DNA of 61,127 nucleotides, the filler included. It is 8 parts of 8 records of this genome, joined end to end, with 100 filler letters (N's around TTAATTAATTAA, not from the genome) between each part and the next. Parts side by side here need not be neighbours in the genome. Positions count along the whole stretch, not along the records: positions 37,866 to 43,904 come from SRR31156797_30962; 7 more parts are not named here. One strand, written 5' to 3'. The position numbers were made by a program, and so were the translations under genes. Shown piece after piece: positions 26,536-47,777 of the stretch. The stretch's first letter is position 1, and every line of letters starts with the position of its first letter. The notes under the pieces were generated by a model. That model was not told where the DNA came from. It worked only from the letters and a program-made list of their open reading frames with translations, and made no database searches.

Positions 26536-29364
26536 CTATTTCATCAACACCAACTTCTGCGTTACGGTCTCACTTCCCACTTGCAATCTTGCCACATACA
26601 TCCCGCTTGCACACGCGCCGGCATTCCATTTTACTTCGTAAGCACCACTTTCCATTGGCATATCCACCAAGGTTGCGATCTTTTTACCGGAAATATTGAA
26701 AATACATAATTTCACATCGCCATGCTCGGGTAGTTGAAAATTGATGGCTGTTGTGGGATTGAAAGGATTCGGATAACAATCCATGAGAACATGATCCATT
26801 TCATCGGGATATTCTTCGATGGCTACGATCTTGTTTACATTATAAGTGTATGTTTCATCATATAAAGCAGATTGATCATATGCAAACAGGATCCTACGCA
26901 AAGCGGGCGCGCTGGTATAAACTTCTGAATTTAAATTCAAATACATACCTAAACTGTCACCGGCCTTTGCCGGAAAATCGAATGTCAAGGAATCCATGAC
27001 GTGAGTAAAGCTGGTATCTCCTTCTACTGTCAGGATAACAGTGGTATCTATTGCTTCATCAAGATCAATGCTTACTGTTATATTGCTATCTATTGGCGAT
27101 CCAACCATATCAAGATATTCTACAGCCAATCGATAACCGATACGGTTCAAGGCATCGCCATTAAAATGCATATTTTGATTTGAATAACGGTAATAATCAC
27201 AATCGTCAATATCAATGCATCTGGCATAACCGCGCCAATTGGGTATATCCATTTGGGCTGCACGAACAGGTGCTTCATATGGTGAATCAGGGTTCCAGTT
27301 GATCTGCACACAAATAAATGGCAAACTATCCACCTCAGAACTATTCGGGAAACGTTCCCTGATGCTATCAATAAATCTTCTTAAATTACCCGGATACCGG
27401 GAACTTGCCATGGCAGTTTCATCGCTTTCACCTTGAAACCAAAAGAATCCGATGTATTCGAGTTCATATCCATCTTCATGAAAAGCTTCGACTGCATTTT
27501 CATGTTTTTCAACGAACCATTTCCATGTATCCCCTTCGGGTTTCCAATCTTGATACAAACTTGTGCCGCTGTAGGGAGCTTTAATAACCGCCAATGAATC
27601 CGTATAGTTTTTATAAAGCGTCCTGGCAAGCAACATTTCTAAACCAAAACCCTTATCGTAGCCCTTGCAATAATCGTATGAGTAGCCGAATTTTGTCAAT
27701 AAACCCAAAGTTGAATAACCAAAATCACCGTAACAGTACGCCAGATAGTAAGGTATCTGGTTATCAACGGTATCGGAGATAAAATATTTTTGAGGTTCAC
27801 CCATATTCTCGGCATTTGATTGCCCGGAAATGACGATCACTTTCTTCACTTGACGTTTCGCAGTAAAATTCACGCTGTCCAAATGGGTATCCTGGGCTGT
27901 GATAATAATTTCCTCAGGATCAAAAACGTAATTCTTATAAACAGGTACAAAACTGGTATCGAATCCTGCCGGTAGCTCAAAAGAGTAGTAGCCGTCGCTG
28001 TCGGTAACTGCACTGCCGATCTGTACTCCTGCCAGGCCAGAGGAATCTAACATGACTCGACCTCTAATATTCAGGATATTTTTTATTTCAAAAGTATAGG
28101 CATCATCAAGGATTACAGCAGGATCATAAACAAAAGGAATCGTGATCTCGGGGGGGGCAAATTCATATTCATCTGCCGGTACAGGCCTGATATTCAAGCT
28201 GTCGCCCAATTTTGCCGGGAATGTGTATGTTGGTGAATTAATATTACCAATTAAGGCCCTGGTTCCCCCAACGAAAAATCTCATTGAAGGATCGATATTC
28301 CCATTAAAGTTCAAATTCACACTCACACTGCTGTCAATGGGATGTCCTACCAGATCAAGGTAAGTGGTGGCGAGTTTATATCCGATACGATTCAAGGCTA
28401 TACCATTAAAGTGAAGATTTGTATCACTGACGCGGTAGGAATATAGATCATCCACATCGACCCAGGCGGTGTGCGATCTGTTGTTAACTATATTCATCTG
28501 GGCTTGTCTGACCGGTTCCTCATAGATTGCCTCACGATTCCAAATGATCCTTACGCATACGAAAGGTAAAGAATCAACTTCCGACGAATTTGGAAAACAT
28601 TCGCGCATTCTGTCGACTAAATGGTATAGACTGTCACCGTAAATTGCTGAATTATGCGATGACCTGTCACTTTCACCCTGATACCAGAAAAAACCGATGA
28701 ATTCCGGTTCATAGCCTTCGGCATGCAGGGAATCTACACCATTTTTATGCATGTCATTGAACCATAAGCGAGCATCGCCATACTCATCCCAGTTTGTGAT
28801 CAGGCTTGTACCACCCCAACCGATCTTCATAACAGCCAAGGAATCGGTATAATGTTTGAATAGTGTTCTCGCCAGTTGGATCTCAATACCGAAATTCGAC
28901 CAGGAATAAACTCCGAAATTCGACATCAGGCCTAAAACATCCAAACCATGTTCAACTCCGTTATATGCCATATAATACGGTATGTGTTGATCTACATTAT
29001 CGGGAATAAAATATTCGGAGGTACCATGGAATCCGGCATTTGATTGCCCTGCTATCACAATTACTTTTTTAGCCTGTCGGGATGCAAAAATATCTATGCT
29101 GTCCAATACCGTGTCTTGTGAACTGATATTAATAATTGCCGGTTCAAAAAGGAAATGATTCAATTCCGGTGCAAAGCTTGTATCCTTCCCGGCAGGAATA
29201 ACAAATGAAAAATAACCGCTGCCGTTTGTTGAAACGCTTCCGATATCCACACCTTTCAAACCATAGCCATCCAGCATGGCCCGCCCCTGAACGTGAAGGG
29301 AATCAACAGCAAATATTGATGATACGATACTAAGAAAGAACAAGAAAATTGAGATCTTTTTCAT
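26536..29364 (-). CDS. Secreted protein with two sialate O-acetylesterase-like (SASA/SGNH) domains and T9SS type A domain
   Basis: Two copies of GQSNA, FW[YF]QGESD and N[LM]HFNG; C-terminal YPNPFNP..SGMYVARL..QKLVLMK. Confidence 0.85.
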   Translation of the reverse strand: MKKISIFLFFLSIVSSIFAVDSLHVQGRAMLDGYGLKGVDIGSVSTNGSGYFSFVIPAGKDTSFAPELNHFLFEPAIINISSQDTVLDSIDIFASRQAKKVIVIAGQSNAGFHGTSEYFIPDNVDQHIPYYMAYNGVEHGLDVLGLMSNFGVYSWSNFGIEIQLARTLFKHYTDSLAVMKIGWGGTSLITNWDEYGDARLWFNDMHKNGVDSLHAEGYEPEFIGFFWYQGESDRSSHNSAIYGDSLYHLVDRMRECFPNSSEVDSLPFVCVRIIWNREAIYEEPVRQAQMNIVNNRSHTAWVDVDDLYSYRVSDTNLHFNGIALNRIGYKLATTYLDLVGHPIDSSVSVNLNFNGNIDPSMRFFVGGTRALIGNINSPTYTFPAKLGDSLNIRPVPADEYEFAPPEITIPFVYDPAVILDDAYTFEIKNILNIRGRVMLDSSGLAGVQIGSAVTDSDGYYSFELPAGFDTSFVPVYKNYVFDPEEIIITAQDTHLDSVNFTAKRQVKKVIVISGQSNAENMGEPQKYFISDTVDNQIPYYLAYCYGDFGYSTLGLLTKFGYSYDYCKGYDKGFGLEMLLARTLYKNYTDSLAVIKAPYSGTSLYQDWKPEGDTWKWFVEKHENAVEAFHEDGYELEYIGFFWFQGESDETAMASSRYPGNLRRFIDSIRERFPNSSEVDSLPFICVQINWNPDSPYEAPVRAAQMDIPNWRGYARCIDIDDCDYYRYSNQNMHFNGDALNRIGYRLAVEYLDMVGSPIDSNITVSIDLDEAIDTTVILTVEGDTSFTHVMDSLTFDFPAKAGDSLGMYLNLNSEVYTSAPALRRILFAYDQSALYDETYTYNVNKIVAIEEYPDEMDHVLMDCYPNPFNPTTAINFQLPEHGDVKLCIFNISGKKIATLVDMPMESGAYEVKWNAGACASGMYVARLQVGSETVTQKLVLMK

Positions 29365-29611: not shown

Positions 29612-31249
29612 AAAAAGAGAATACTTTTCCTTGCAGACAGGAATATTCTGGTAGATCAAGCCAAGACCAATGACTTCAAACCCTTTGGTTCTGCAATGCA
29701 TAAGATCAAAAATAGAAACGCTGAGAAATCTTATGAGATTTATCTTTCACTATATCAAGCTGTTACAGGCAACGAAGAAGAGAAGAATATTTACAAACAA
29801 TTCTCAAGAGATTTCTTTGATCTTGTAGTCGTAGATGAATGTCATCGTGGAAGTGCTGATGAAAACTCTGCATGGAGAGAGATTCTTGAGTATTTTGATT
29901 CAGCTACACAAATCGGGATGACGGCCACTCCCAAAGAAACTAAAACCGTATCAAACATTCATTATTTTGGTGAACCAATCTACACTTACTCACTTAAACA
30001 GGGCATAGAAGATGGATTCCTGGCTCCTTACAAGGTTATACGTATTGATCTTGACAAGGATGTGCTGGGCTGGAGACCTAACAAAGGAAAGATTGACAAG
30101 TACGGTAGACCAATAGAAGACCGCACTTACAATCAGAAGGATTACGATAAAGAATTAGTTCTGGAGAAGAGAACTGAGCTTGTTGCTAAAAAGGTCACTG
30201 AAATTCTCAAAGCTACTGACAGGTTTGGTAAGACTATTGTTTTCTGTGAGAATATTGATCATGCTGAGAGAATGCGACAGGCACTTGTTAATGAGAATCC
30301 AGATCTTGCACAGGATAGTAAATATGTAATGAGGATTACTGGAGATGAGCAGGAAGGAAAGGCAGAACTGGATAATTTCATTATGCCTGAAAGTCGCTAC
30401 CCTGTTATTGCTACAACATCCAAGCTTTTGAGTACCGGAGTGGATGTACAGACATGCAAACTCATTGTTCTTGATAAGCAAATAAAGTCCATGACCGAAT
30501 TCAAGCAGATAATAGGACGTGGAACCCGTATCAATGAGGATTTTGACAAATTATATTTCACAATAATGGACTTCAGGAAAGCAACGGAATTGTTTGCTGA
30601 CCCTGACTTTGACGGAGATCCTGTTGACATATACGTGGGTGGTGGTACCAAGCCACTTAGACCTAACATGCCATCCCAGAAAATCAAACCTTACAAGGTT
30701 GATGATGTGGGTGTTTCTGTTATTGCGGAAAGAGTACAATATTATGGCTCAGATGGCAAGCTGGTTACTGAATCTATCAAGGACTATACTAAGAAGACAA
30801 TGCTTGAAGAGTTCTCATCCCTTGATCTATTTTTGAAGTATTGGTCTGATACCGGAAAGAAACTGGCAATTGTACAGGAACTTGAGGAAAAAGGTCTGTT
30901 GTTGGATGCACTCGCTGGAGAAGTGGGAAGGGATTATGATCCTTTTGATCTTATCTGTCACGTAGCATTTGATCAGCCCGCTTTAAGTCGCAAACAAAGG
31001 GCAAATAATGTTCGTAAGACTGGATATTTTGAAAAGTACGGAGAGAAAGCCCGTGCTGTTCTTGATGCTTTGTTGGATAAATACGCTGATGAGGGTATCA
31101 GAAACCTTGAGGATATTGACGTACTGAAAGTAAAACCATTGAGTGATATTGGAACACCTATTGAGATAATCAAGCTCTTTGGTAACAAGAATAAGTTCCT
31201 TGAAGCTGTTGAGGAAATGGAAACACAGTTATACCTTGCTGAAGCTTAA
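29612..31249 (+). CDS. hsdR: Type I restriction subunit R, EcoAI/EcoEI-like (N-terminus truncated)
   Basis: Frame open from contig start ([16 protein letters not shown]); [30 protein letters not shown] helicase motifs; EcoEI-R-like C-terminus. Confidence 0.93.
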
Positions 31250-31280
31250 TCCTTGATTAGCACAGGATGAGGATAAAACG

Positions 31281-32729
31281 ATGTCAATTAGCACTACTAT
31301 CAAGACTATACAGGATATAATGAGAAAAGACGCTGGTGTCGATGGTGATGCACAGCGTGTAAGTCAGCTTGTTTGGATGTTATTCCTGAAAATATTCGAT
31401 GATAGAGAACAGGAATATGAGTTGATGGATGAGACTTATGTATCTCCTATTCCCGAACATTTAAGGTGGAGAAACTGGGCAAGTGATCCTGAGGGCATAA
31501 CCGGTGAGGAACTGCTTGACTTTGTGAATGATGGTCTGTTCAAAGACCTGAAAAACCTTTCATTTTCTAATGATTCAGATCCGCGTGGTTTCGTAGTACG
31601 TGAAGTTTTTGAAGATTCATATAATTATATGAAAAATGGTACTCTGATACGTCAGGTTGCCAATAAGATCAATGAGATCGACTTTAATGTTTCCAAGGAA
31701 AGACATCTTTTCGGAGATGTATATGAGAAAATTCTAAAAGACCTTCAGAGTGCTGGAAATGCAGGTGAATTCTACACACCAAGAGCAGTTACCGAGTTTA
31801 TGGTACAGATGGTCAACCCGAAGATAGGGGAAAACATACTTGATCCTGCCTGTGGAACAGGTGGTTTTCTTACATCCTCCATTGATCATCTGAGAGAAAA
31901 GGTGGAAAATGTTGAAGATGAGCAAATCCTACAAAGCTCTATTCATGGAGTGGAAAAGAAACCACTTCCTCATTTGCTATGTATAACTAATATGCTCTTA
32001 CATGGAATTGAAGTACCTTCTCAGATTCGCAGAGACAATTCCCTTGCAAGGCCCCTGAGAGATTACAAGCCAACCGATAAAGTGGATGTGATTATAACCA
32101 ATCCTCCCTTTGGAGGTACTGAAGAGGACGGAATTGAATCCGGATTCCCTTCCGCTTATCAGACAAGGGAAACAGCAGACCTTTTCCTTGTGCTCATAAC
32201 CCATCTGCTAAAGGATAATGGACGTGGTGCAATTGTCCTTCCTGACGGTACATTATTCGGAGAAGGTGTCAAGACACGCATTAAAGAGAAGTTGCTCAAT
32301 GAATGCAATCTTCACACCATTGTACGCCTTCCAAACGGCGTATTCAACCCCTACACAGGCATCAAGACTAATCTCCTTTTCTTTAGCAAAGGGGAGCCTA
32401 CAAAGGAAATATGGTACTATGAACATCCATACCCGGATGGCTACAAATCTTACTCCAAGACAAAACCCATGAGAATTCAGGAGTTTGAACCAGAAAAAGC
32501 ATGGTGGAACAACCGTGAGGAAAATGAACTTGCCTGGAAGGTTACAATAGACGATATCAAGGCAAATAACTACAATCTTGATATCAAGAACCCTCACGTC
32601 ATAGACATAGACCATGGCGACCCCGAAGAACTCCTTGAAAACTACAAATCCCTTCTCTCAGATATCTCCAAAACCCGCAACACCCTGAAAAAAGAACTCA
32701 AGGCAGCCCTCGAAGGTAAAAACACATGA
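31281..32729 (+). CDS. hsdM: Type I methyltransferase subunit M (m6A)
   Basis: GEFYTPR, DPACGTGGF (motif I), NPPFGG (motif IV). Confidence 0.95.
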   Translation: MSISTTIKTIQDIMRKDAGVDGDAQRVSQLVWMLFLKIFDDREQEYELMDETYVSPIPEHLRWRNWASDPEGITGEELLDFVNDGLFKDLKNLSFSNDSDPRGFVVREVFEDSYNYMKNGTLIRQVANKINEIDFNVSKERHLFGDVYEKILKDLQSAGNAGEFYTPRAVTEFMVQMVNPKIGENILDPACGTGGFLTSSIDHLREKVENVEDEQILQSSIHGVEKKPLPHLLCITNMLLHGIEVPSQIRRDNSLARPLRDYKPTDKVDVIITNPPFGGTEEDGIESGFPSAYQTRETADLFLVLITHLLKDNGRGAIVLPDGTLFGEGVKTRIKEKLLNECNLHTIVRLPNGVFNPYTGIKTNLLFFSKGEPTKEIWYYEHPYPDGYKSYSKTKPMRIQEFEPEKAWWNNREENELAWKVTIDDIKANNYNLDIKNPHVIDIDHGDPEELLENYKSLLSDISKTRNTLKKELKAALEGKNT

Positions 32730-34435
32730 ATTCAGAATCATTTTTCGAGAACTTCGAGCTGCTTGCGGAATCTCCTAACGCCATTCAGAAACTCCGAGAG
32801 ATGATTTTGCAGATGGCTGTGCAGGGTAAACTTGTACCACAGAATTCAGATGATGAAACGGCAGAAGTGTTGTTGGAGAGGATTAAGAATGAGAAGGAAA
32901 GATTGGCTAAGGAAGGGAAGATTAGAAAGCAGAAAAAATTGCCACTTCTTGACGATAGAGATTTTCCTTATGGAATTCCAAAAAATTGGGCTTGGGTGTA
33001 TTTAGGCCAAATTAGTCAGATTGTCGGTGGCGGAACACCGAAAACAAGTAATCCAAATTATTTTTCAGAAAATGAAATATCTTGGCTAACTCCTGCGGAT
33101 TTATACAGTTTGAAAAGCAAGTATATCGGCAAGGGAAAAAGAGACATAACTGAAAGTGGCTTACAAAATAGTTCTGCACAACTAATGCCAGCAGGATCAG
33201 TTTTATTTTCAAGTCGTGCCCCAATTGGGTATGTTGCAATTGCATTAAATGATCTGGCAACAAATCAAGGATTCAAATCGTGTGTTCCATTCATTATGGG
33301 AATGAATGAATATGTCTATTATTTCTTAAAGTCTGCTGTCAAGGAAATAAATAACAATGCAACAGGGACGACTTTCAAAGAAGTATCTGGTAAAATAGTG
33401 AACCAAATAAAATTCCCTCTCCCCCCGCTCGAAGAACAAAAACGTATCGTAGCCAAAGTAGACCAACTCATGGCACTATGCGACCAGCTGGAATCATTCC
33501 AGCAAAAGAAGAATGAAAGCCGCATCCAGTTAAATAATTCAGCACTCAACAAGATGCTCGATGCCGACAGCCCTGGGGAATTCGCAGAACACTGGCAGCT
33601 TGTTTGTGAGAACTTTGATCAGCTCTATGATGATCTGGATAATGTGGAGAAGCTCAAGCAGGCGATATTGCAGCTTGCGGTGCAGGGTAAGCTTGTGGAG
33701 CAGGATGCGAATGATGAAACGGCTGAAGTGTTGTTGGAGAAGATTAAGGTTGATAAAGAGAGATTGGTAAAAGAAGGGAAGATTAAGAAAAGTATCAAAT
33801 TCGATGAAATAAAAGAGTCTGAAATTCCGTATGGAATTCCTGATAATTGGAAATGGGTTCGATTAATAGATTTATGCGATATAGGAACAGGAAGCACTCC
33901 CTTGAAGACTCAAACAGAATATTATCAAAATGGCACAATTCCATGGATAACTAGCTCGGCTACTTCACTTGAATTTGTTGATAATGCTGAAACACATATT
34001 ACACAAAAAGCCTTAGATGAATGTCATTTGAGACTCTATCCTTCTGGAACTTTAATTATAGCATTATATGGTCAAGGAAAAACACGAGGGCAGGTTGCAG
34101 AAATCCAAATAGAAGCTACTATTAACCAAGCATGTGCTGCCTTAGTTTTCATTGATTCTCTTGAGGTTAACAAACGTTATGTAAAGCTTGTTTTAACGAA
34201 ACAATATGTTGAGTTACGAAGTCTAGCTGCTGGTGGTGCTCAACCAAATCTTAATGTTGGTAAAATAAAAAATGCATTTATCCCACTTCCACCTCTTGAA
34301 GAACAAAAGCGTATCATAGCCAAAGTAGATCAACTCATGACACTATGCGACCAACTTGAAGCAAAGATAAGACAGGCACAATCGGATAGTGATGTATTGA
34401 TGGAAGTGGCTGTGAGTCATCTGCTTGAAGTTTAA
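32726..34435 (+). CDS. hsdS: Type I specificity subunit S
   Basis: Two TRDs framed by repeated ILQxAVQGKLV / PYGIPxNWxWV / LPPLEEQKRIxAKVDQLMxLCDQLE; ATGA overlap with hsdM. Confidence 0.95.
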   Translation: MNSESFFENFELLAESPNAIQKLREMILQMAVQGKLVPQNSDDETAEVLLERIKNEKERLAKEGKIRKQKKLPLLDDRDFPYGIPKNWAWVYLGQISQIVGGGTPKTSNPNYFSENEISWLTPADLYSLKSKYIGKGKRDITESGLQNSSAQLMPAGSVLFSSRAPIGYVAIALNDLATNQGFKSCVPFIMGMNEYVYYFLKSAVKEINNNATGTTFKEVSGKIVNQIKFPLPPLEEQKRIVAKVDQLMALCDQLESFQQKKNESRIQLNNSALNKMLDADSPGEFAEHWQLVCENFDQLYDDLDNVEKLKQAILQLAVQGKLVEQDANDETAEVLLEKIKVDKERLVKEGKIKKSIKFDEIKESEIPYGIPDNWKWVRLIDLCDIGTGSTPLKTQTEYYQNGTIPWITSSATSLEFVDNAETHITQKALDECHLRLYPSGTLIIALYGQGKTRGQVAEIQIEATINQACAALVFIDSLEVNKRYVKLVLTKQYVELRSLAAGGAQPNLNVGKIKNAFIPLPPLEEQKRIIAKVDQLMTLCDQLEAKIRQAQSDSDVLMEVAVSHLLEV

Positions 34436-37865: not shown

Positions 37866-38135
37866 GACCATCCCTCGGGTCTGACGGGTATCAGAAACAG
37901 CAGTATAGCAAACTCCCTATTTATTAACTGCCGGATAAAGGGAAACTTCTTCGCCTTCTCAAGGCTGGAAAACTCCCTCTTTTTGGACTGCCGGTTTATT
38001 GAGGCAGACTGGACCCTTACCGAAAGGGAGGGGGGCTCATTTATCAACTGTCAGAACGGCCCTTCGGAATCACAGATATACAATGACCATCCCCATGGGC
38101 AGTGGAGCCAATGGGAAAGGAATATAGCGGTATGA
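37866..38135 (+). CDS. Pentapeptide-repeat protein, C-terminal fragment
   Basis: Hand translation: ..IRNSS IANSL FINCR IKGNF FAFSR LENSL FLDCR FIEAD WTLTE REGGS FINCQ..NIAV*; 5-residue periodicity; TGA overlaps next ATG (38132). Not in ORF track. Confidence 0.7.
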   Translation, partial: DHPSGLTGIRNSSIANSLFINCRIKGNFFAFSRLENSLFLDCRFIEADWTLTEREGGSFINCQNGPSESQIYNDHPHGQWSQWERNIAV

Positions 38136-38488
38136 ATAAAATGAAAACAGCCCTGAACAATCTGGACAGGGACGTTCTGGAGGACGGTTTCTGCCTGCTC
38201 TATGATGAACTGAAAAAGGGCGGTTCCGTGGAAGAGGCTCCTCTGCAAACTGTGCAGGAACCCCAAATCCCCAACTTCACCAGCCTGATCCTCCATCTGA
38301 AGGATAAATACCCCTTCGAAGAGCTGAAGGATTTTATCGTGGAAGGAGGCCGGGTCATTTGGAAAAGAGGAGGACGGCGCATCGATCTTTCTCGTGAAGA
38401 GCAGGAGATTGTCAGAACGCCTCCTCCCTCTAAAACCGAAACACAGGAAGAGGCTGCCCCCCGATTCCGCCAGCTGGAGATGAATTGA
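38132..38488 (+). CDS. Hypothetical protein
   Basis: In frame with tracked ORF 38102-38488; ATGA coupling at 38132 suggests the start. Confidence 0.65.
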   Translation: MNKMKTALNNLDRDVLEDGFCLLYDELKKGGSVEEAPLQTVQEPQIPNFTSLILHLKDKYPFEELKDFIVEGGRVIWKRGGRRIDLSREEQEIVRTPPPSKTETQEEAAPRFRQLEMN

Positions 38489-38491
38489 AAG

Positions 38492-38686
38492 ATGAGTGAT
38501 CAGAAGAACTATCTGAAAGTAAACAGAACCACCGGGGAACTGGAGTTTCAGGACTTCCCATTCCCAGAGAAGGAAAAGGCCTATCTCAACCAGATCTATC
38601 TGGAGTTCGCCTTCGAACCCCTGGATACCTCAACTGTTGAGAAGATGAACCGTTTTGTGAATGAAAAGCTTGAGGTCGAGCAATGA
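38492..38686 (+). CDS. Small hypothetical protein (64 aa)
   Basis: GGAG upstream, 3 nt after the previous stop, ATGA overlap with the next gene. Confidence 0.65.
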   Translation: MSDQKNYLKVNRTTGELEFQDFPFPEKEKAYLNQIYLEFAFEPLDTSTVEKMNRFVNEKLEVEQ

Positions 38687-39417
38687 ACGATAAAGGTTGC
38701 GAATTTACACTTCCCCTGGGGCTGAAAGATAAAGACGGCGTGCTCCATAGAAAGGGTTTCCTCCGGGATGTGACCGCCGAAGACGAGCTGTTGCTTCAGG
38801 ACTCTGACGGGGTGCGTTTTAACGACAGACAACGGGACCTGGAACTCCTGTCCCGTTTGGTTATCAGCCTTGGCAGCCTCCCCGCGGTTGACTCTGAAAC
38901 CCTGGAAGATCTCTACGAGGCGGACTTCATCTATCTGCAGATGCTCTTCAACAGTCGGAACGAGGGCATATCCCCCTCCTACCGCTGTCCAAACTGCGGG
39001 GCCAAGCGGGATCTGGAACTGTCTGCCCTCTTCGGGGATGACGAGACATCAGGGAGGAAGGAGTCCTGCGGCTTCTCATTACCCCAGGGCAGCGGCCTGA
39101 AACCGGAGATTGGAACCAGAGTGAAGGGCAAGATGACCATGGCCCTCTGCCGCGACTTCCTGACCCTCTACCGGGACCCCAGAACAAAGGAGAATTCCTC
39201 CTGGTTTTACGTGGGCCTCCTGACCCGGACAGTCAAAAAACTGGGAGCGGAGAAATCCATCAACAACGGTGTTATTTCCAGGTTGAACCCCAAGGACTTT
39301 TCCTTCCTGGTGGACCTCTTTAACGAGCTGAACAACGGTGCCATCAGAGACATCAAAGACCTATGCTCCTGCGGTAGCGAGAACAGAGTGGAGCTGCAGC
39401 TCCCGGGGGAAGCATAA
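38683..39417 (+). CDS. Tail assembly chaperone-like protein (gpG-like), two tandem copies of the domain
   Basis: Repeat 1 FTLPLG..DGVLHRKG..TAEDEL..LLSRLVISLG..DFIYLQMLFNSRN..CPNCG; repeat 2 FSLPQG..KG..RDPRTKEN..LLTRTVKKLG..DFSFLVDLFNELN..CSCG. Resembles from memory the family found upstream of DUF6760 in contractile injection system loci. Confidence 0.75.
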   Translation: MNDKGCEFTLPLGLKDKDGVLHRKGFLRDVTAEDELLLQDSDGVRFNDRQRDLELLSRLVISLGSLPAVDSETLEDLYEADFIYLQMLFNSRNEGISPSYRCPNCGAKRDLELSALFGDDETSGRKESCGFSLPQGSGLKPEIGTRVKGKMTMALCRDFLTLYRDPRTKENSSWFYVGLLTRTVKKLGAEKSINNGVISRLNPKDFSFLVDLFNELNNGAIRDIKDLCSCGSENRVELQLPGEA

Positions 39418-39451
39418 GCCGCCTTTCCTCAGATGTATACGGAGAGGCGGC
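39390..39451 (+). promoter_or_regulatory. Programmed -1 ribosomal frameshift signal
   Basis: GGAG 39390-93; G-GGG-GAA 39405-11 in the reading frame; 6-nt spacer; stem GCCGCCTTTCC (39418-28) pairing with GGAGAGGCGGC (39441-51). Confidence 0.75.
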
Positions 39452-39617
39452 CAACCTTGCCTATTACTTCCACTGGAGCCGAACAGAGGTGATGGGCATG
39501 AGCCGGAGAGAGAGACGGAAATGGCTGGGCGAGCTTGATAAGATCAACGGCAGGATCAACAGCGATACCCGCAGCTATGTGGATGCGATAATGAACACGG
39601 AAGGGAGATCACAATGA
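39408..39617 (+). CDS. DUF6760-like -1-frame extension of the chaperone (gpGT-like)
   Basis: GSISRLSSDVYGEAANLAYYFHWSRTEVMGMSRRERRKWLGELDKINGRINSDTRSYVDAIMNTEGRSQ*; no ATG/GTG/TTG between upstream TAG (39375) and GTG 39489, which lies after the YFHWS motif; TGA overlaps ATG 39614. Confidence 0.75.
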   Translation, partial: GSISRLSSDVYGEAANLAYYFHWSRTEVMGMSRRERRKWLGELDKINGRINSDTRSYVDAIMNTEGRSQ

Positions 39618-42600
39618 TAGGGGAATTGACGCGCTACTTCAAAAAGAACTTCTATACCGACAAAGACCGGGAAATCACAGAGGCCTTCGCCCTTTACGAA
39701 AAGGCCCTCTCTAAGGAGGGGGAAGAGTCCCTTGCCATGAAAGACCGGGCCCGTCACACTCTGGAGTCCCAGCTGGTGGAAAGCGGTCAGGCCGAACCCG
39801 AGAGCGTCTACCTGAACCCCGATGAATTCTTTCCTTCGGGCCGCCGTGACGATGACAAGATCGATGATTTCCGCAGGGCAATGACCTGCGGGCACAGCGG
39901 CCAGCAGATGCTCTGGTCCTTTGCCGGCACCACCGGGGCCATGACCATATTAACGGAGAAGCATCTGGAATCTATGGGGCGCAGCCTGGATGACCTGAAA
40001 CCCGCCGGCATGCTCCGCAAAGAGAGGGCAAAGAAGAACAAGAGGCCCCCCGCCGGAACGGTCCGGCTTTACCTCTACGGAGACGGCACGTCCAGCGAGG
40101 TCTACGACAAGGAAAAGGCCAGGCTCCGCTTCGACAGGATGAAGGACAACAGCGGCCATGACTGGTCAATGAAAGGCTACGATCCGAACTACAGGGTTGA
40201 AAAAAAAGGCTGGTTTTCGGCCCTGGACAAGGACGGTCAGTGGGTCCGGGTGGATGAAGAGCGGCCCGGTGATGAAAGCGTAAAAGCCGAAGAGGCGGGG
40301 CCTGCTAAAGAGATCAGGTTGATCCACACCCTGGATGGTCCCCTTGTGATGGACCTGAGCCTGCTTCTCTCCCGTGAGGAAGAGGAGTACTACTATTCCA
40401 TGGACGGAGAGCTCTACGGGGGAGTGAAGAACGACACAGAGGCCAATCGCAAAGCCCTGGAGGAGACATTGGCGGGAGAAAAACCCGTTGGGGTCATCAT
40501 CCCTAAGCGAATGTCCAAGGAAGACAAAGATGCGTACAAGAAACATTTCGGGAATAAAATCCGATTTTACGAAGAGGGGAGCCTGGAGACGGCAAAGGTT
40601 CTGGAGAAGGATAGTGTTGAGCGCGAGAAGGCTCTTTCTGCCAGTGTAAGCCTGGGAGCCTACGCCCGGCTGAAAAGACGGGGACTGAGTGACAAACAGA
40701 TAAAAGAAGCCCTGAAGACGGAGGGCGGAATGGTCACGGTACCCCTTAATCCTTTTCTCCAAAAAGACCGAAGCCTGATCAGTGAAACCATCAGTCCCGA
40801 GACCGAGGCCTGGCTGGACGAGAAGGGGAGTGAAATAGAGAATCCCCAGGATGTGCTTCCCCTGTTGACGGCGGTGCTGCCTCTCTTGAGCTCGAAGGCG
40901 GGCAGTCCGGAGCTGGATGATCAGGCGGTGCTGGATGAGGCAGTACGGCATGCTGATGGTAAGACAGGTGATATTTCAGAACAGAAGATCACCAGCCGCT
41001 GTACCCTGGCTGAGCTTTGCGAGGGGAACAGGCCTGATACGGCTCCTAAGCTATCAACAAGGAACTACGATTTCTTTAATAGTGGGGAGCTAAAACAGGC
41101 TGCAAAAGACATAGGGTTAAACGAAGGTGAAAGGGCTTCTCTGGCCCAGTCCGTAGAATCATTGAATATGCCTCCTGTGGACAGAAAAAACTTCAACAGG
41201 GCTCTTTCTCGCAGCCTCTCCGACTACCGTGCCGTACAGATGAGCACGGGCATGACCGTGGGCGATTTGGTCCGTTCTGTTGATTCCATAGCCATGAAAA
41301 GGCCCGATGCCAAGAGGATAGGGGCAAAGGACGTCTACTACGAACAGACCTTGGGGGATATTTTTTCAGTAGCCTCAACCATGCCTTTGATGACAAGAGA
41401 TATTAGCAAAGAGGAGCTTTATAAGCCTCTGGCTGTAAGTCCTGTTCAGGCGGTAAACGAACAAACAACAGCTGTTAATAATCCCGAAACGGTCCTGGCC
41501 TTAACCGATGAGCTTCTTTCTATCCTGGAGGAGGCGGCTCCCGGAGTAAGCGCCACACCCGATGAGGAGCAGCTGCTTAGACTGGATGAGAACTACAAGG
41601 AGGCGGGAATCCCAGAGGAAACCAGGAAAGAGGCCCTTGCCCGCTGGGAAGAGGCTTCCTTCGCTCCCGGCGAGTTTGAATCGATAGCTTCCCGGCTCAG
41701 GAGTTCCCTTGAAACTCTAGACAGCGAGAATACAGCTTATCCTGTAGCTTCAACAGAGTCACAGACCCCCGAAACCATCATCAACAACCAAAGGCAGGCC
41801 ATCTCCTATGAAAACCAGACCATAGAGACTCTTGCTGATGGTTTCTACAAGGAAACAGAAGGTAAAAAGACCCATGTCCTTCCCAGAGAGGAGCTTTTAC
41901 CGTTTATTGCAGCAGCATCGGCGGGCAACTGGGACTCAGTACCCAAATCCTACAGGGCCCCTATCAGAAACAGCATAAGCCGCTACAGCGGCTCTGCGTC
42001 TTCTCTGGTCGTTAGTGACTTGCTGCCTCCATCGGTCAGCCCGCAGACAAGGTTTGGGGGAATAAACAGAACAATTCCTGTCTCTCAGGATATGAGCCAG
42101 TCTAAGGGTTATGGAAACCTGGGTTATCGTTACAATGCAAACAGCCGCCGTTTGGAAGCCTTGAAACCGGAAGCCAGAGGGACGGTTGCCGAAGGGCTGA
42201 GCAGTCCCCAGATTATGATGGCTCAGATGGCAGAAGCATCTGTCCCATTACCAGGAAACAAAACCCCGGCAACAAAGAGATCCGGAGGACAGCCTCAGAA
42301 AGCGGAGGCTTCCCTGAAAGCTGCTAATGAAATTAAGGGCAAGCCCGGCCCTGCAGTGTTTACACCGCCAAAGAGATTGTCGCTGCATAATACGGGGACA
42401 ATGGGAAGCTCTTTGAATAATACAACAGGTCCAGCTCCTATCAGGGCGGAATCATCGCAGCCAGCTATGGGCAGCTACAACCCCGCCACGTTTACCCATA
42501 CAGGTGTACCGGGAAGACGGGGGGCCGGTATAGGGCAGGTATCGGCAGGACAAATGCCGGCAAGGCAGATTCCTGGCATGCCTTCTTTTCCCCAGGGACA

Positions 42601-42829
42601 AACTACTCCTACTCAAGGAATGTCACCCCAGCCGGAGCTAAGCCGCATGGACCGGATAAATATGAACTATAACGCCGACAAGGCAGCATTAGGAGAAGGC
42701 GACCAGAGGATGCTGGCCAAGACCCAGAGCCATTCTGTGGGGCATGCCGGGGGGAGTGGCAGTCAGAGGAAGAGTGTAAAGACTCTTTTAGTTAGCGATG
42801 TTCTTGATGATGTAAATAGAGGGGTTTAA
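39614..42829 (+). CDS. Large hypothetical protein (1071 aa) in the tape-measure position
   Basis: GGGAG RBS, ATGA coupling, charged/helical body and P/Q/G/S-rich C-terminus; no family recognised. Confidence 0.75.
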   Translation: MIGELTRYFKKNFYTDKDREITEAFALYEKALSKEGEESLAMKDRARHTLESQLVESGQAEPESVYLNPDEFFPSGRRDDDKIDDFRRAMTCGHSGQQMLWSFAGTTGAMTILTEKHLESMGRSLDDLKPAGMLRKERAKKNKRPPAGTVRLYLYGDGTSSEVYDKEKARLRFDRMKDNSGHDWSMKGYDPNYRVEKKGWFSALDKDGQWVRVDEERPGDESVKAEEAGPAKEIRLIHTLDGPLVMDLSLLLSREEEEYYYSMDGELYGGVKNDTEANRKALEETLAGEKPVGVIIPKRMSKEDKDAYKKHFGNKIRFYEEGSLETAKVLEKDSVEREKALSASVSLGAYARLKRRGLSDKQIKEALKTEGGMVTVPLNPFLQKDRSLISETISPETEAWLDEKGSEIENPQDVLPLLTAVLPLLSSKAGSPELDDQAVLDEAVRHADGKTGDISEQKITSRCTLAELCEGNRPDTAPKLSTRNYDFFNSGELKQAAKDIGLNEGERASLAQSVESLNMPPVDRKNFNRALSRSLSDYRAVQMSTGMTVGDLVRSVDSIAMKRPDAKRIGAKDVYYEQTLGDIFSVASTMPLMTRDISKEELYKPLAVSPVQAVNEQTTAVNNPETVLALTDELLSILEEAAPGVSATPDEEQLLRLDENYKEAGIPEETRKEALARWEEASFAPGEFESIASRLRSSLETLDSENTAYPVASTESQTPETIINNQRQAISYENQTIETLADGFYKETEGKKTHVLPREELLPFIAAASAGNWDSVPKSYRAPIRNSISRYSGSASSLVVSDLLPPSVSPQTRFGGINRTIPVSQDMSQSKGYGNLGYRYNANSRRLEALKPEARGTVAEGLSSPQIMMAQMAEASVPLPGNKTPATKRSGGQPQKAEASLKAANEIKGKPGPAVFTPPKRLSLHNTGTMGSSLNNTTGPAPIRAESSQPAMGSYNPATFTHTGVPGRRGAGIGQVSAGQMPARQIPGMPSFPQGQTTPTQGMSPQPELSRMDRINMNYNADKAALGEGDQRMLAKTQSHSVGHAGGSGSQRKSVKTLLVSDVLDDVNRGV

Positions 42830-42831
42830 GG

Positions 42832-43653
42832 GTGAGTGGACAGGAAGAAGTAACATATCCCAAGTACGTGAAGTTAACACGCTTGCTCAATTTAGCGAAT
42901 AACTTCTATCGGAGGGTGACAGATCGGTCAGAAAACATTCAATCCAGGATGCAAAACCCAGACTATGAGTTAAGAAGCGAAAATCTGGTAACCTCCTATG
43001 AAGCAGAAAAAAAAGAACTTGACCTTATACAACCGTTGGATAGTTCCTTGGTCAATCTTTTTTTAATGACATATGGAAGAGATCTCTCTGATGTGAGAAT
43101 CCATACCGGTCCCTATGCCCATGAGATTACTCATAAAGCAGGAGCGGAGGCCCTGACTTCAGGAAATGATATTTATTTCTCTTCCGGAAGCTATGCACCC
43201 CATACAGAAGAGGGAGAAGCTCTTCTATTACATGAAGTGGAGCATGTAAATCAGAACCAGAAAGGACAACCTTTGGCCTATCGAGAAGATGTGGAAAGGG
43301 CCGAAAGAGAGGCCTATAGTCGGGAAGGTTTGAAAGGACTAAACCTGGAGGGAAGTGAGCATTTCGAGAGATGGACGCAAGATGACATTCTTTTCAAGAA
43401 CAAGGAACTGGGCGGCGGTCTGGATACAGTAGAGAAAGATTTAGAAGATTACACGAACGCCGATCCCATTGAGATTTATCGATATATTAGCAATTCCGGT
43501 AGGACTCACGAGTTGACGAAGGATGAATACTGGGAGTGTATCGCGGAAATAAAAGAAAAGCTGAAGGATCTCTTTGAGGAAAAAATGATGTATGGCACAG
43601 AAGAAGAAAGAGTCAGTACCGCCCATCAAATCGTGAAGTTATTTGAAAGATAG
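42832..43653 (+). CDS. DUF4157 (eCIS-associated) domain protein with HExxH
   Basis: YGRDLSDVRIHTG..AGAEALTSGNDIYF..YAPHTEEGEALLLHEVEHVNQ; GTG start after AGAGGGG. Confidence 0.85.
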   Translation: MSGQEEVTYPKYVKLTRLLNLANNFYRRVTDRSENIQSRMQNPDYELRSENLVTSYEAEKKELDLIQPLDSSLVNLFLMTYGRDLSDVRIHTGPYAHEITHKAGAEALTSGNDIYFSSGSYAPHTEEGEALLLHEVEHVNQNQKGQPLAYREDVERAEREAYSREGLKGLNLEGSEHFERWTQDDILFKNKELGGGLDTVEKDLEDYTNADPIEIYRYISNSGRTHELTKDEYWECIAEIKEKLKDLFEEKMMYGTEEERVSTAHQIVKLFER

Positions 43654-44142: not shown

Positions 44143-44556
44143 TTACAAAGTAGCCCATATGCGGGCCAGGGAAAACCCCGGAGCCTGAATGTTTAAATCC
44201 AAAAAATAACCAAAAGGTGTTTGGGCAGTTTTAAAATCAGCATTCTGTAGTCGTTTCTCAGCCAAATCGAACAATTCTTTTGTAAACTCAATTGATGCTT
44301 TTGATTCAGATAAATGAGCAAACGAATGGAGGATCACACTTTTACAATCATTTTTTCTTGCTGTCCATTTTAAATGGTTGACCAATTTTTTTTCACGACT
44401 TTTCACATCTTTTGCTTCATCACTTTCCTCTACCTGGATAAATGCCAGTATCGAATTGGAAAAAGATGTACCTTCCGTTATATCTTTTGCTGTATCCAGG
44501 TTCTTTTGTGCCGGTTTATACGAAAACTCATCAACATACATTACCAATACCTTCAT
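44143..44556 (-). CDS. Stand-alone archaeal-type threonyl-tRNA synthetase editing domain protein
   Basis: 137 aa; FIQVEESDE, ILHSFAHLS (archaeal YP[F/Y]AHLS) and TPFGYF (archaeal APFGYY) motifs. Confidence 0.8.
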   Translation of the reverse strand: MKVLVMYVDEFSYKPAQKNLDTAKDITEGTSFSNSILAFIQVEESDEAKDVKSREKKLVNHLKWTARKNDCKSVILHSFAHLSESKASIEFTKELFDLAEKRLQNADFKTAQTPFGYFLDLNIQAPGFSLARIWATL

Positions 44557-45455: not shown

Positions 45456-45602
45456 AACATTTTAATTTTTAGATTTATAAGTTTTGAATTAAAAAACAGG
45501 TAGTTCTGCTTTTTATGAAAATTATACTGATTTATTTTTTTGAATAAAATTTACGTAATTTACGGTCAAAATAAAAATTTACGATACGTAAGTAGAAGTA
45601 AG

Positions 45603-47777
45603 ATGCGCAAATCAATAAAGTTATTTTTTATTCTTTTTTTAATCCACACTTTTGCCCAGGCACAGATTTCTGAAGGTGGATTTCCCATGCAGGTTATTTC
45701 CTTGAAAAGTTTAAAAAAAAATATGGTGGAAATGCCAGAGCTACTACAAAGTGTAATAGATGCTGCTATTGAAAAGAACAATGATAAGCAACTGAAATCG
45801 CTCACTTTCGCACATGCATTTGAAGTCAACATAAATCCTTCCAATTCGGGACAGTGGTATACAACCAATTCGGGGTATAATGTTTGGAAACTTTCAATTG
45901 CTTCAAAAAATGCTTATTCCATAAATCTCATCTTTAATGATTTTGAACTACCCGAAGGTAGTCGTCTGTTTATCTATAACGAAGAAAACAATCATTATCT
46001 GGGAGCTTTTACTTCTGGCAATAATAAAAAATCAAGGAAATTTGCTGTAGCTCCGGTGGCCGGTGATGAGTTAACCGTTCAGTACGAAATTCCGGAAGAG
46101 CTGGGGACACCTTCCGATTTTGAAATAGTTCGGGTGAATCATGACTTTATGGGGATATTGAAAACCTACCGAAGACCTTTGGGAATTTCGGGGGATTGTA
46201 ATGTCGATGTAAATTGTGAGATTGGATATAAATGGGAAGAGCTTAAAAACTCTGTGTGCCGATTGTTTGTGAATGGTGAGGAAGCATGCACAGGTACGCT
46301 TGTAAATAATACTGCTGAAGATCAAAAACCCTATGTTTTATCTGCCTGGCATTGTTATGACGAATGGGATTACGCGGAAACTACTGTTTTTACATTTAAT
46401 TACGAGAGTCCGTATTGCGCTCCGTTGGATGGAGATCCGGTAAATTCATTATCGGGAGCGGTTATGAAAGCTCATTTTGATAGTCTTGATTTTGCATTGG
46501 TTGAAATGAGTGTTATGCCCCCTCCTGATTTCAGACCTTATTATGCTGGTTGGGACAGATCAGCAGGTTTGCCTGATTCATCAATTAGTATTCATCATCC
46601 ACTTGGTGATATTAAAAAGATAACATTTGATAATGATGAGGCAGCCTATGCGACATATACTTCTGCGTCTATAAATAATCCAACAAATGGATCATTTAAA
46701 ATTTATGAATGGGATGATGGGGTTACAGAGGCAGGATCGTCAGGAGGTCCGCTTTTTAATACGAGTGATAATGTGATTGGAACTCTAACCGGGGGAAGGG
46801 CTAGCTGTGGTTATCCTTACGATGATTATTATTCGCGTTTTGCCATGCAGTGGGATTATAGCGATGATACAACAAAACAGCTGAAACACTGGCTCGATCC
46901 AACAAATTCGGGTGTAAGCAGTCTAAGTGGAAACCAATTTAATGAAGGAGAAGACTTGTGTAAAGCATTTACAAATTTATCAGATGTAGACGAACATGGA
47001 AATATTGTAATAACGGTATCGGGAGAGAGTAAAGGCTATTGGGGCGGATCGAACTCGGTAGGAATTGATGAGGTTGTCGAGAAATTTTCTATTCCCGGAA
47101 ATGAGGTGTTAGATGGGGTATCGTTTGGTGTTGGGAAATTGGAAACAAGTACAAACCATACCAAAATAACGGTAAATGTATATAATGGCAGCTCGGAACC
47201 CGAAGATTTAATTTACAGTAAGGTTGTTGACGTAAGAAATTGGGCCGACGATGCAATGAATTATGTTTCATTTGATGAGCTTGTGGAACCTGCCGACACC
47301 TTTTTTGTAGGTTTCGGATTAGATGGCTCCCAAGTTGCCGATTCGTTTGTGGTTTATCAGTCGCTACGTCAAAGCGAAGGATTATCCAATTATTTTTATT
47401 TTAAAAGGGATGGTAGCTGGTATAATTTTGCAGAATCGAATACGGAAAATTATACCATGGTAAATGTGATGGAATTAGTGGCCTGTAATTGTGATATAAT
47501 AACAGATACTCCTAATATTGCCGAACCGGCAGAGACTGTATGGATTTATCCGAATCCAACCCGCCAAACCTTAATAGTTGAATCGGATGAAAGTATTTAT
47601 CCGGAAAGTGTAAAAGTGTTTAATTTGATTGGACAAGAGGTTGATGTTAGATTGGAAGAGGTTGATGAATACAGGATAAAAGTGAATTTGCAGGGACAAA
47701 CTACAGGTGTTTATTTTGTCCGTTTTAAATATGAGGATTCGTTTGTGAGTCGGAAGTTCTCTTATTTGAGTGAGTAA
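45603..47777 (+). CDS. Lysyl-endopeptidase-like trypsin-fold serine protease with T9SS type A domain
   Basis: Signal peptide from ATG 45603; CTGTLVNN, SAWHC, DFALV, IHHP.GD.KK, GSSGGPL; C-terminal IYPNP..GVYFVR. Confidence 0.87.
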   Translation: MRKSIKLFFILFLIHTFAQAQISEGGFPMQVISLKSLKKNMVEMPELLQSVIDAAIEKNNDKQLKSLTFAHAFEVNINPSNSGQWYTTNSGYNVWKLSIASKNAYSINLIFNDFELPEGSRLFIYNEENNHYLGAFTSGNNKKSRKFAVAPVAGDELTVQYEIPEELGTPSDFEIVRVNHDFMGILKTYRRPLGISGDCNVDVNCEIGYKWEELKNSVCRLFVNGEEACTGTLVNNTAEDQKPYVLSAWHCYDEWDYAETTVFTFNYESPYCAPLDGDPVNSLSGAVMKAHFDSLDFALVEMSVMPPPDFRPYYAGWDRSAGLPDSSISIHHPLGDIKKITFDNDEAAYATYTSASINNPTNGSFKIYEWDDGVTEAGSSGGPLFNTSDNVIGTLTGGRASCGYPYDDYYSRFAMQWDYSDDTTKQLKHWLDPTNSGVSSLSGNQFNEGEDLCKAFTNLSDVDEHGNIVITVSGESKGYWGGSNSVGIDEVVEKFSIPGNEVLDGVSFGVGKLETSTNHTKITVNVYNGSSEPEDLIYSKVVDVRNWADDAMNYVSFDELVEPADTFFVGFGLDGSQVADSFVVYQSLRQSEGLSNYFYFKRDGSWYNFAESNTENYTMVNVMELVACNCDIITDTPNIAEPAETVWIYPNPTRQTLIVESDESIYPESVKVFNLIGQEVDVRLEEVDEYRIKVNLQGQTTGVYFVRFKYEDSFVSRKFSYLSE

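Follow-up and report, generated by a model that had tools for sequence, protein, structure and literature searches.

The closest described counterparts of the locus considered here are the tail-assembly chaperones (TACs) of long-tailed phages, which are made in a short and a long form by programmed −1 frameshifting, as are gpG and gpGT of lambda; the E/E+E′ pair of P2 and gp41 of Mu are further cases. According to the account in PMC10885494, the chaperone frameshift was found in 28 phages by Xu, Hendrix & Duda (2004), and 2,397 joined chaperones are annotated by SEA-PHAGES. The same account, which concerns the PRFect program, places the heptamer GGGGGAA (the 'fivetwo' motif) in about a thousand of the annotated SEA-PHAGES frameshifts and explains it by a G-U pairing of tRNA-Glu on GGA; GGGGGAA as a phage chaperone slip site, named in a preliminary description of the present DNA, is thereby documented for actinobacteriophages. 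Here we describe a putative member of this class in a contractile injection system (CIS). It lies in a stretch of 61,127 nucleotides (the window, that is, the whole stretch that was analysed), in which an open reading frame (ORF) for a predicted TAC ends in a slippery sequence followed by a hairpin and is continued in the −1 frame by a DUF6760 domain. We put at about 0.85 the probability that a fraction of ribosomes slips on G_GGG_GAA and so makes a chaperone of 311 aa that ends in a DUF6760 domain, and the arrangement is very probably a programmed −1 frameshift of the lambda G/GT type in the TAC gene of a CIS. The parts of the cassette, whose slippery and −1 portion falls at 39375–39617, are as follows:

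38683–39417, plus strand: chaperone ORF in the 0 frame, 244 aa, with the 3′ end CCG GGG GAA GCA TAA (from the sequence and the ORF listing)
39390–39393, plus strand: GGAG, 11 nt 5′ of G_GGG_GAA, a possible Shine-Dalgarno (SD)-like stimulator
39402–39408, plus strand: C_CCG_GGG, a canonical X_XXY_YYZ in the 0-frame register that overlaps the main heptamer; candidate alternative slip site
39405–39411, plus strand: G_GGG_GAA, the main putative slippery heptamer, with GGG in the P site and GAA in the A site
39408–39617, plus strand: −1-frame extension with the DUF6760 domain (Pfam PF20546), the 'T-like' part, of 68–69 codons plus the TGA at 39615–39617
39415–39417, plus strand: 0-frame stop TAA, within the 6-nt spacer 39412–39417
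39418–39451, plus strand: predicted stimulatory hairpin, an 11-bp stem of 39418–39428 with 39441–39451, containing one G-U pair, and a 12-nt loop

All the features named in the preliminary description (ORF end, heptamer, GGAG, spacer, stem, −1 frame and ATG overlap) are present on reading the sequence. It did not list C_CCG_GGG, which accompanies the G-run in 5 of the 81 non-redundant loci compared below (the window, L017, L036, L067 and L083). By the ORF listing the −1 frame is open from 39378 to 39617, 79 codons from stop to stop, and its TGA at 39615–39617 overlaps the ATG at 39614 of a 1071-aa ORF (ATGA). The claim that this frame holds no ATG, GTG or TTG upstream of its AYYFHW motif is borne out in the window; the earliest ATG or GTG lies within the domain, at ..TEVMGM.., and an ATA at 39414 overlaps the chaperone stop. 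The two predicted products are very probably of 244 and 311 aa, the second length being obtained by translation where about 311 had been proposed. Residue 243 of the predicted long product is Glu if the tRNAs slip in tandem on G_GGG_GAA, and Gly if the slip takes place on C_CCG_GGG or in the P site only. With regard to the junction peptide by which the long form might be recognized, ...LPGGSISR is possible, but so is ...LPGESISR, which a tandem slip on G_GGG_GAA would give. The stretch 39395–39470 folds with a minimum free energy of −27.6 kcal/mol (z −2.12; 4 of 200 shuffles fold as well), and the 60 nt 3′ of the heptamer, folded alone, give a z of −3.72. Independent DNA contigs from two other sequencing runs span the junction with 0 gaps, and the frame arrangement is therefore not an assembly error.

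On the mechanism that we propose, most ribosomes would read 38683–39417 and release the 244-aa chaperone, while some would pause over G_GGG_GAA against the hairpin 6 nt downstream and slip back by one base, with tRNA-Gly re-pairing on GGG and tRNA-Glu re-pairing on GGA through a central G-U. The slipped ribosomes would read 68 more codons, to the TGA at 39615–39617, and so add a C-terminal three-helix DUF6760 domain. By analogy with lambda, the short and long forms may both bind the large downstream protein via the TAC domain, and the DUF6760 tail may dock the chaperone complex to the tube or the baseplate, or recruit tube subunits or the baseplate hub, while the machine is being assembled. 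It may be speculated that frameshifting also feeds translation of the next gene, because ribosomes in the −1 frame would terminate on its ATG; a 4-nt overlap with the next ORF occurs in 22 of the 70 loci whose next ORF is at least 100 aa long.

The locus shares with lambda gpG/gpGT a pair of overlapping frames placed after a tube gene (in many relatives) and, in the window, before a very large gene, a second frame that is offset by −1 and lacks a start codon for itself, a heptamer near the end of the first ORF, and the chaperone fold. It differs from lambda in that its setting is an injection system of bacteria and archaea, without a capsid, rather than a phage, in that the extension belongs to a distinct family, DUF6760, and the TAC carries a CxxC motif and is tandem in the window, and in that the site is accompanied by a strongly conserved, covarying hairpin. 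Compared with the GGGGGAA frameshifts of SEA-PHAGES, both the heptamer and the explanation by tRNA-Glu re-pairing are identical. Those frameshifts, however, are in annotated phage genes, mostly of high-GC actinophages, whereas the CIS motif is kept, against codon usage, in low-GC cyanobacteria, spirochaetes, Myxococcota and archaea too.

The evidence for this reading comes mainly from relatives, for which two samples were used. The first consists of 16 loci from viral contigs and the best 80 of 566 tblastn-confirmed places in species-representative genomes; its bacteria are spirochaetes, Bacillota, Actinomycetota including Streptomyces, cyanobacteria, Myxococcota, Acidobacteriota, Chloroflexota, Planctomycetota and Nitrospirota, and it also includes archaea. 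The second sampled two phyla evenly, at 401 genomes per phylum, using the Pfam model, and DUF6760 was found in 8 of 401 and, in the archaeal phylum, 28 of 401. Frames were called by locating a TAC hidden Markov model (HMM) and a DUF6760 HMM in all three frames, and a non-redundant set was formed of 81 loci with the −1 arrangement and <90% identity over 240 nt; the comparative counts given here all ignore shared ancestry. Relative to the chaperone, DUF6760 is offset by −1 in 94 of 97 cases (the 96 loci plus the window), the exceptions being L059 (frame 0, a separate gene), L096 (frame 0, assembly indels) and L029 (cut by the contig end). In the second sample the offset is −1 in 36 of the 36 loci matched by the DUF6760 HMM, a weak sub-threshold locus, L135, being unmatched. 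The distance from the chaperone stop to the domain start takes the values −53, −47, −44, −14, −11, −5, +4, +7, +10, +22 and +31 nt, and is always 1 mod 3. The constant −1 offset foreseen for homologues is therefore found. Homologues with random offsets and with ribosome-binding sites and starts of their own had been named as the contrary outcome; the offsets are not random, but some homologues do have their own ribosome-binding site and start, and we return to them below. In L096 (Streptomyces sp. M19 contig_1) the chaperone switches frame partway through the gene, and the lack of one G in the G-run leaves DUF6760 in frame; the pattern looks like long-read homopolymer errors, not biology.

A conserved slippery heptamer had likewise been expected, and one is found in register in the overlap of 77 of the 81 non-redundant loci, made up of 62 GGGGGRN, 14 A/T-run and one G_GGA_AAG sites; none is found in the other 4. 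In the second sample a heptamer is present in 35 of 36 loci. The A-site codon of the 62 G-run loci is GAA in 40, GGG in 10, GAG in 7 and GGA in 5, and the stop follows the heptamer after 0 (24 loci), 1 (35) or 5 (3) sense codons. The A/T-run heptamers (T_TTT_TTA/C/G and A_AAT_TTT) belong mostly to Bacillota and to one viral-contig group, and in the haloarchaeal loci L108–L114 a lambda-like G_GGA_AAT/C replaces the G-run 16 nt before the stop; replacement heptamers of the A/T or GGGAAAY kind sit 13–40 nt upstream of the stop. As a control, heptamers were counted in the bodies of the same ORFs, which hold 41 in 10,752 codons, as compared with 66 in 891 for the last 14 codons, and by chance a heptamer would be expected in about 4.8% of loci as against the 77 of 81 observed. 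A codon test that does not presuppose the motif was made on the 66 loci in which the chaperone tail reads x-Gly-[Glu/Gly]. The tail Gly codon is GGG in 65 of the 66, against 22.2% of the 677 Gly codons elsewhere in the same ORFs, and the codon before it, which may specify any of nine amino acids (L, P, S, V, M, Q, A, G and K), ends in G in 63 of the 66, against a background of 30.3%. The binomial P values (1e-41 for GGG and 1e-29 for the preceding G) ignore kinship and are read only as far beyond chance; in each of the four exceptions an A/T heptamer lies further upstream. The putative slippery heptamer is held at the nucleotide level, and chance is a very unlikely explanation of the predicted arrangement.

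The stem covariation that the preliminary description predicted is also present. For the 62 G-run loci, whose alignment was made without fitting to structure and in which the hairpin was scored as 6 + 5 bp, the 60 nt 3′ of the heptamer have a mean z of −3.0 against dinucleotide shuffles (z < −2 in 50 of the 62), and nearly all share one hairpin at a constant 6-nt spacer from the heptamer. Standard pairs fill 86.5% of the hairpin cells, compared with 34–62% when the 3′ partners are slid by 1–3 columns. Changes on both sides are seen in 8 of the 11 pairs. Neither the 58 compensatory cells (shuffle mean 25.4) nor the covariation score of 0.296 (0.200 shuffled) was reached by any of 500 shuffles. 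The basal helix, GCUACC/GGUAGC in most phyla, becomes GCCGCC/GGCGGC in spirochaetes including the window, with Tyr-to-Arg codon changes on one arm matched by Val-to-Ala on the other, and the distal helix changes repeatedly, one of its pairs being GC in 19, CG in 14, UG in 5 and UA in 1. At a conserved Tyr-Pro the Pro codon is CCC in 45 of 57 loci, a preference that hairpin pairing would account for. Covariation was counted for the G-run loci, the A/T-run and GGGAAAY loci being folded only. The combination of a heptamer with a hairpin at 5–7 nt, together with a possible upstream SD-like element, is also that of dnaX and IS911 of Escherichia coli. The CIS site differs from these in being G-rich, not A_AAA_AAG, in having the 0-frame stop inside the spacer, and in its SD-like tetramer, which is not clearly conserved as a signal; it lies 5–22 nt upstream of the heptamer in 40 of the 62 G-run loci, a count that is not discriminating, and overlaps conserved Glu-Val-Glu codons.

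The chaperone identity proposed for the upstream protein was supported by sequence and by a structural model. A TAC HMM built from 81 homologues matches the window protein twice, at residues 7–115 (78.7 bits) and 130–243 (72.5 bits); since both halves are matched, we take the window TAC to be a tandem duplication of the usual 120–130-aa unit, as in L017. Each half ends in a CxxC zinc-ribbon-like motif, and a search of the TAC sequence profile against the PDB returned only zinc-finger CxxC look-alikes. The window protein matches phrog_508 'tail assembly chaperone' with E 5.6e-5, as do 59 of 77 family members, and weak Pfam matches are to Phage_TAC_7 and Gp41_Mu (2 of 77 each). An AlphaFold model of residues 124–244, made from a 77-row alignment, has a predicted local distance difference test score (pLDDT) of 77.9, its last 23 residues falling below 50. 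When it was searched against 48,161 chains, the first two ranks went to YqbN of Bacillus subtilis (3klu; Z 7.6, root-mean-square deviation (rmsd) 3.7, 92 residues aligned), which we take to be a tail-assembly chaperone, and to the HK97 TAC (2ob9; Z 6.7, rmsd 3.3, 83 aligned), the best unrelated chain reaching Z 3.5; the top three of Foldseek are the same entries with weak E values of 0.14–0.9. As modelled, the fold of the upstream protein is that of the phage tail-assembly chaperones.

The family also touches the T4 gp26-type chaperones, in that 6 of the 77 members match Pfam T4_baseplate (PF12322; best E 1.2e-8) and 5 of the 77 match phrog_150 'baseplate hub'; neither TAC domain of the window matches PF12322, and L017 scores 18.7 bits, under the cut-off of 24.5. 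It differs from them in its use of a −1 frameshift cassette, a non-frameshift mechanism for T4-like tail assembly chaperones being reportedly the subject, by title, of work by Vladimirov, Gautam and Davidson in 2022. In the relatives, a gp19-type tube gene stands directly 5′ of the chaperone in 48 of 80 non-redundant loci (in L060 it is Pfam PF06841), and the next ORF downstream encodes between 103 and 1568 aa. The Nostoc plasmid NZ_CP117771 (RefSeq) carries a complete annotated CIS locus in which a cap protein (DUF4255), two sheath proteins and a tube protein precede the chaperone, annotated as 'phage tail assembly protein'; a 'DUF6760 family protein' follows, and then a tube-like protein, a hypothetical protein, a LysM protein, VgrG/Pvc8, gp25 and a baseplate protein.

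The −1 peptide of the window was correctly predicted to be DUF6760; it matches the Pfam family (PF20546) over residues 8–55 with E 8e-11 and 42.3 bits, against a cut-off of 27. The domain is modelled, at pLDDT 88.2, as a helix (3–21), a short helix (25–29) and a long helix (33–67), and Foldseek gave no meaningful match for this model in the PDB (best E 2.2, TM score about 0.3). A complex prediction for the tube protein and DUF6760 of L060 returned no answer (score 0.01) and weighs neither way. One convincing natural in-frame fusion of TAC and DUF6760 was found among 80 representative clusters: P0064, of 172 aa, on 2 contigs, in which the chaperone HMM gives E 1e-13. Three further candidates were rejected, P0005 and P0076 for junk-like N-termini and P0030 as a repeat protein. 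By tblastn DUF6760 has no match in 50,697 phage records, and for this reason it seems specific to injection systems. The 16 IMG/VR 'viral' contigs that carry it (L001–L016) may be misfiled injection-system loci, as no GenBank phage record matched. In the haloarchaeal loci L108–L114, DUF6760 covers the whole 89-position Pfam profile with up to 174 bits, and this group may have supplied the seed of the Pfam model.

Several points weigh against a simple frameshift reading, the most general being that both products are predicted from sequence alone. Most of the others bear on the alternative that DUF6760 is a separate protein of about 67 aa, arising where ribosomes reinitiate after termination, or initiate weakly, on the codon that overlaps the stop (ATA 39414 in the window), with the G-run acting as an SD-like element. 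Oscillospiraceae metagenome-assembled genomes (MAGs; L059, L066 and L073) have a separate DUF6760 gene with its own SD and start, and Brevibacillus (L030, L080 and L082) and L040 probably also encode the domain separately; since such genes exist, DUF6760 need not strictly be fused. The heptamer-less loci (L030, L040, L066, L073 and L134) and the frame-0 locus L059 each have a start codon where the domain begins. By inspection of the sequences a well-spaced SD-like run precedes it in L030, L059, L066 and L073, while L040 has GGGAG 5 nt upstream of the start and L134 an SD-like run only 2 nt upstream; here the lost slip site is apparently replaced by an independent start. The preliminary view that DUF6760 'genes' of injection-system loci are frameshift extensions thus holds for most lineages but not for Oscillospiraceae and probably not for Brevibacillus, whose loci, with no slippery site at the chaperone end and an ATG or TTG start for DUF6760, amount to a natural 'split' version and a possible genetic control for the need of fusion. 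Elsewhere, 15 of the 81 loci have an ATG, GTG or TTG only at or after +3, mostly as an ATGA or GTGA overlap with a TGA stop, and in such TGA-stop loci reinitiation could add to or replace slippage, because the ATG or GTG overlaps the stop; 22 of the 81 have a start codon somewhere upstream, codons being counted irrespective of ribosome-binding sites. In Nostoc NZ_CP117771, PGAP gives DUF6760 an ATA start that overlaps a TAG, the window has the same ATA, and GGGGG could pair with the anti-SD sequence via one G-U. Yet 44 of the 81 loci lack ATG, GTG and TTG throughout the open −1 stretch as far as the fourth codon after the slip site, many loci having GTA, CTA or TTA at the overlap. The G-run, moreover, is only 1–4 nt from the overlap codon, too close for an SD; a stable hairpin 0–3 nt after the putative start would hinder initiation, whereas its spacing is ideal for −1 frameshifting; and the A/T and GGGAAAY heptamers, 13–40 nt before the stop, are not SD-like. 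A separate protein would also leave the register-specific heptamers unexplained, and we regard it as an unlikely account of the loci that carry the cassette.

With regard to the hairpin, the spirochaete variant of the stem is probably a single event, and for the 62-locus alignment RNAalifold itself gives another consensus, a 5-bp stem that pairs the G-run with a C-run and shows no covariation. It joins alignment columns 25–29 with 43–47, that is, window positions 39405–39409 with 39423–39427, the latter forming the C/U-run of the hairpin's 5′ arm, and the two structures are mutually exclusive. The G-run/C-run stem could be a switch or could be incidental; the downstream hairpin is preferred because it alone covaries and surpasses the slid controls. 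The hairpin also bears on transcriptional slippage, by which polymerase would add one G (or one T in the T-run lineages) and fuse the frames in the mRNA. The homopolymer runs at many sites (G5–G7 and T6–T7) would suit such slippage, but G5 is shorter than the runs of 8–9 or more A/T known to give efficient slippage, the AAATTTT and GGGAAAY sites are not homopolymers and could not slip in this way, and a register-specific X_XXY_YYZ with a covarying hairpin at 6 nt is a feature of ribosomal and not of polymerase slippage; we consider this explanation very improbable. Finally, the window copy may be a relic that makes no long form, whether as a decaying pseudogene or through a sequencing error. 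The window holds a CIS fragment with a truncated pentapeptide gene and, in its 61 kb, no sheath, tube or ATPase homologue, so that the rest of the machine is missing from it, and assembly indels can affect the G-run, as in L096. Against this, the contigs of two other runs are gapless at the junction, the four ORFs of the block are all intact, the layout of the cassette is identical to that of more than 90 other loci, and in L017, the closest relative, the same cassette stands within a full locus, which leaves a relic or an error only the slightest chance.

The class of TAC frameshifts is well known, and the existence of an unannotated, DUF6760-containing member in CIS is strongly supported by the comparison of loci. 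In one RefSeq record examined (Nostoc NZ_CP117771) it is not annotated as slippage. 'DUF6760' is not mentioned in the literature searched, the scope of which excluded supplements and most subscription journals, and no description of a CIS frameshift was found there; the word 'frameshift' is absent from PMC6899500, PMC10066040, PMC10020575, PMC11126660, PMC13277306, PMC11566945 and PMC12210884, and the same papers never use 'chaperone' for a CIS component. The CIS parts named in such sources are Cis1/2/7/8a, Cis6 (plug), Cis13, Cis14 (tape measure), Cis15 and Cis19; their lists run from Cis1 to Cis16 without a chaperone pair, and several report the tape measure as missing (PMC6899500, PMC10066040 and PMC11566945). 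We think it likely that a single ancient cassette, consisting of G_GGG_GRN, a spacer that holds the stop and a covarying hairpin, is present in the CIS of at least 8 bacterial phyla and of archaea, and that DUF6760 is the missing 'T domain'. If so, this would rank with the most widely distributed programmed −1 frameshifts of cellular genes other than those of phages and insertion sequences, and be a rare conserved archaeal case. All such machines, among them those of the sampled Streptomyces and Halobacteriota loci, would make an unannotated long chaperone needed for tube assembly. The proposal would also give a function and a mode of expression to DUF6760, which occurs at 566 or more places in the species-representative genomes that were scanned, correct the PGAP annotation of a separate 'DUF6760 family protein' in the RefSeq record examined, and add a tail-assembly chaperone pair to the list of CIS parts. 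If confirmed, the cassette would be a compact natural −1 signal with plentiful covariation that functions in bacteria and archaea alike. In engineered CIS delivery devices, dropping or recoding the overlap would silently lose the long form.

The preliminary description had placed the cassette in an operon resembling those for extracellular contractile injection systems (eCIS). Injection-system genes are indeed present around it, but they form a fragment of about 6 kb only, and no sheath, tube, ATPase or baseplate homologue was found within the 61-kb window by Pfam scans and by tblastn of the ORFs of the L017 region. The other members of the fragment are these:

37866–38126, plus strand: remnant of a pentapeptide-repeat gene, about 88 aa alignable, at the 5′ edge of the retained injection-system fragment
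38102–38488, plus strand: 128-aa ORF, family unassigned, 48% identical over 114 aa to a 116-aa ORF of L017 (E 8e-33)
38492–38686, plus strand: 64-aa ORF whose stop overlaps the chaperone start, 41% identical over 58 aa to a 66-aa ORF of L017 (E 1e-14)
39614–42829, plus strand: 1071-aa ORF at the position of the tape-measure gene, 45% identical over 804 aa to a 1119-aa ORF of L017
42832–43653, plus strand: 273-aa protein with an eCIS_core (DUF4157) domain (PF13699, E 8e-23), the last recognizable injection-system gene

L017, from an Oceanispirochaeta MAG (genome G001), has a chaperone 69% identical to that of the window and carries the same block within a full locus, in the order AAA+ ATPase, pentapeptide-repeat protein, 116-aa protein, 66-aa protein, 243-aa chaperone, DUF6760, 1119-aa protein and eCIS_core, with sheath genes (PF04984) and gp19-type tube genes (PF06841) 1–10 kb upstream in G001. 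An eCIS_core homologue occupies the same downstream place in L017 and in L026, and L026 also has a sheath gene. When all ORFs of the 40-kb L017 region were compared with the window by tblastn, the matches were confined to 37866–43644, and the window is for this reason taken to hold a CIS fragment of about 6 kb rather than the full operon. The pentapeptide ORF of L017 (3017–3739, 240 aa), which matches Pfam pentapeptide families and precedes the chaperone block there, aligns with the window at 40% identity over 88 aa (E 8e-17). Searches of Pfam, PHROG and NCBIfam gave no match for the 128-aa ORF and no tape-measure or other known family for the 1071-aa protein.

In Pfam scans of the larger ORFs of the window the eCIS_core/DUF4157 domain at 42832–43653 is the sole injection-system family, the others being a type I restriction system, a PAS/GAF sensor, and metabolic and transport genes. 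The restriction-modification system lies at 29696–34435 (plus strand), with hsdM at 31281–32729 and hsdS at 32726–34435; the ORF of its R subunit (29696–31249, 517 aa) matches the ResIII profile only from about position 89 and may be N-terminally truncated. On the minus strand, a 168-aa ORF at 53763–54269 matches only positions 256–413 of the 413 of DctM and is probably a truncated TRAP-transporter gene. At 44143–44556 (minus strand), a 137-aa protein consists of a stand-alone 'Archaea-specific editing domain of threonyl-tRNA synthetase' (PF08915, E 1.4e-33, full length), and a free-standing protein of this kind is unusual in an apparently bacterial genome. A Por_Secre_tail sorting domain (type IX secretion) is found on two large secreted proteins, at 26536–29364 (minus strand) and 45540–47777 (plus strand), one resembling a sialate O-acetylesterase and the other a trypsin-like protease; the pair gives a hint on the organism, though the closest relatives of the chaperone are from spirochaetes.

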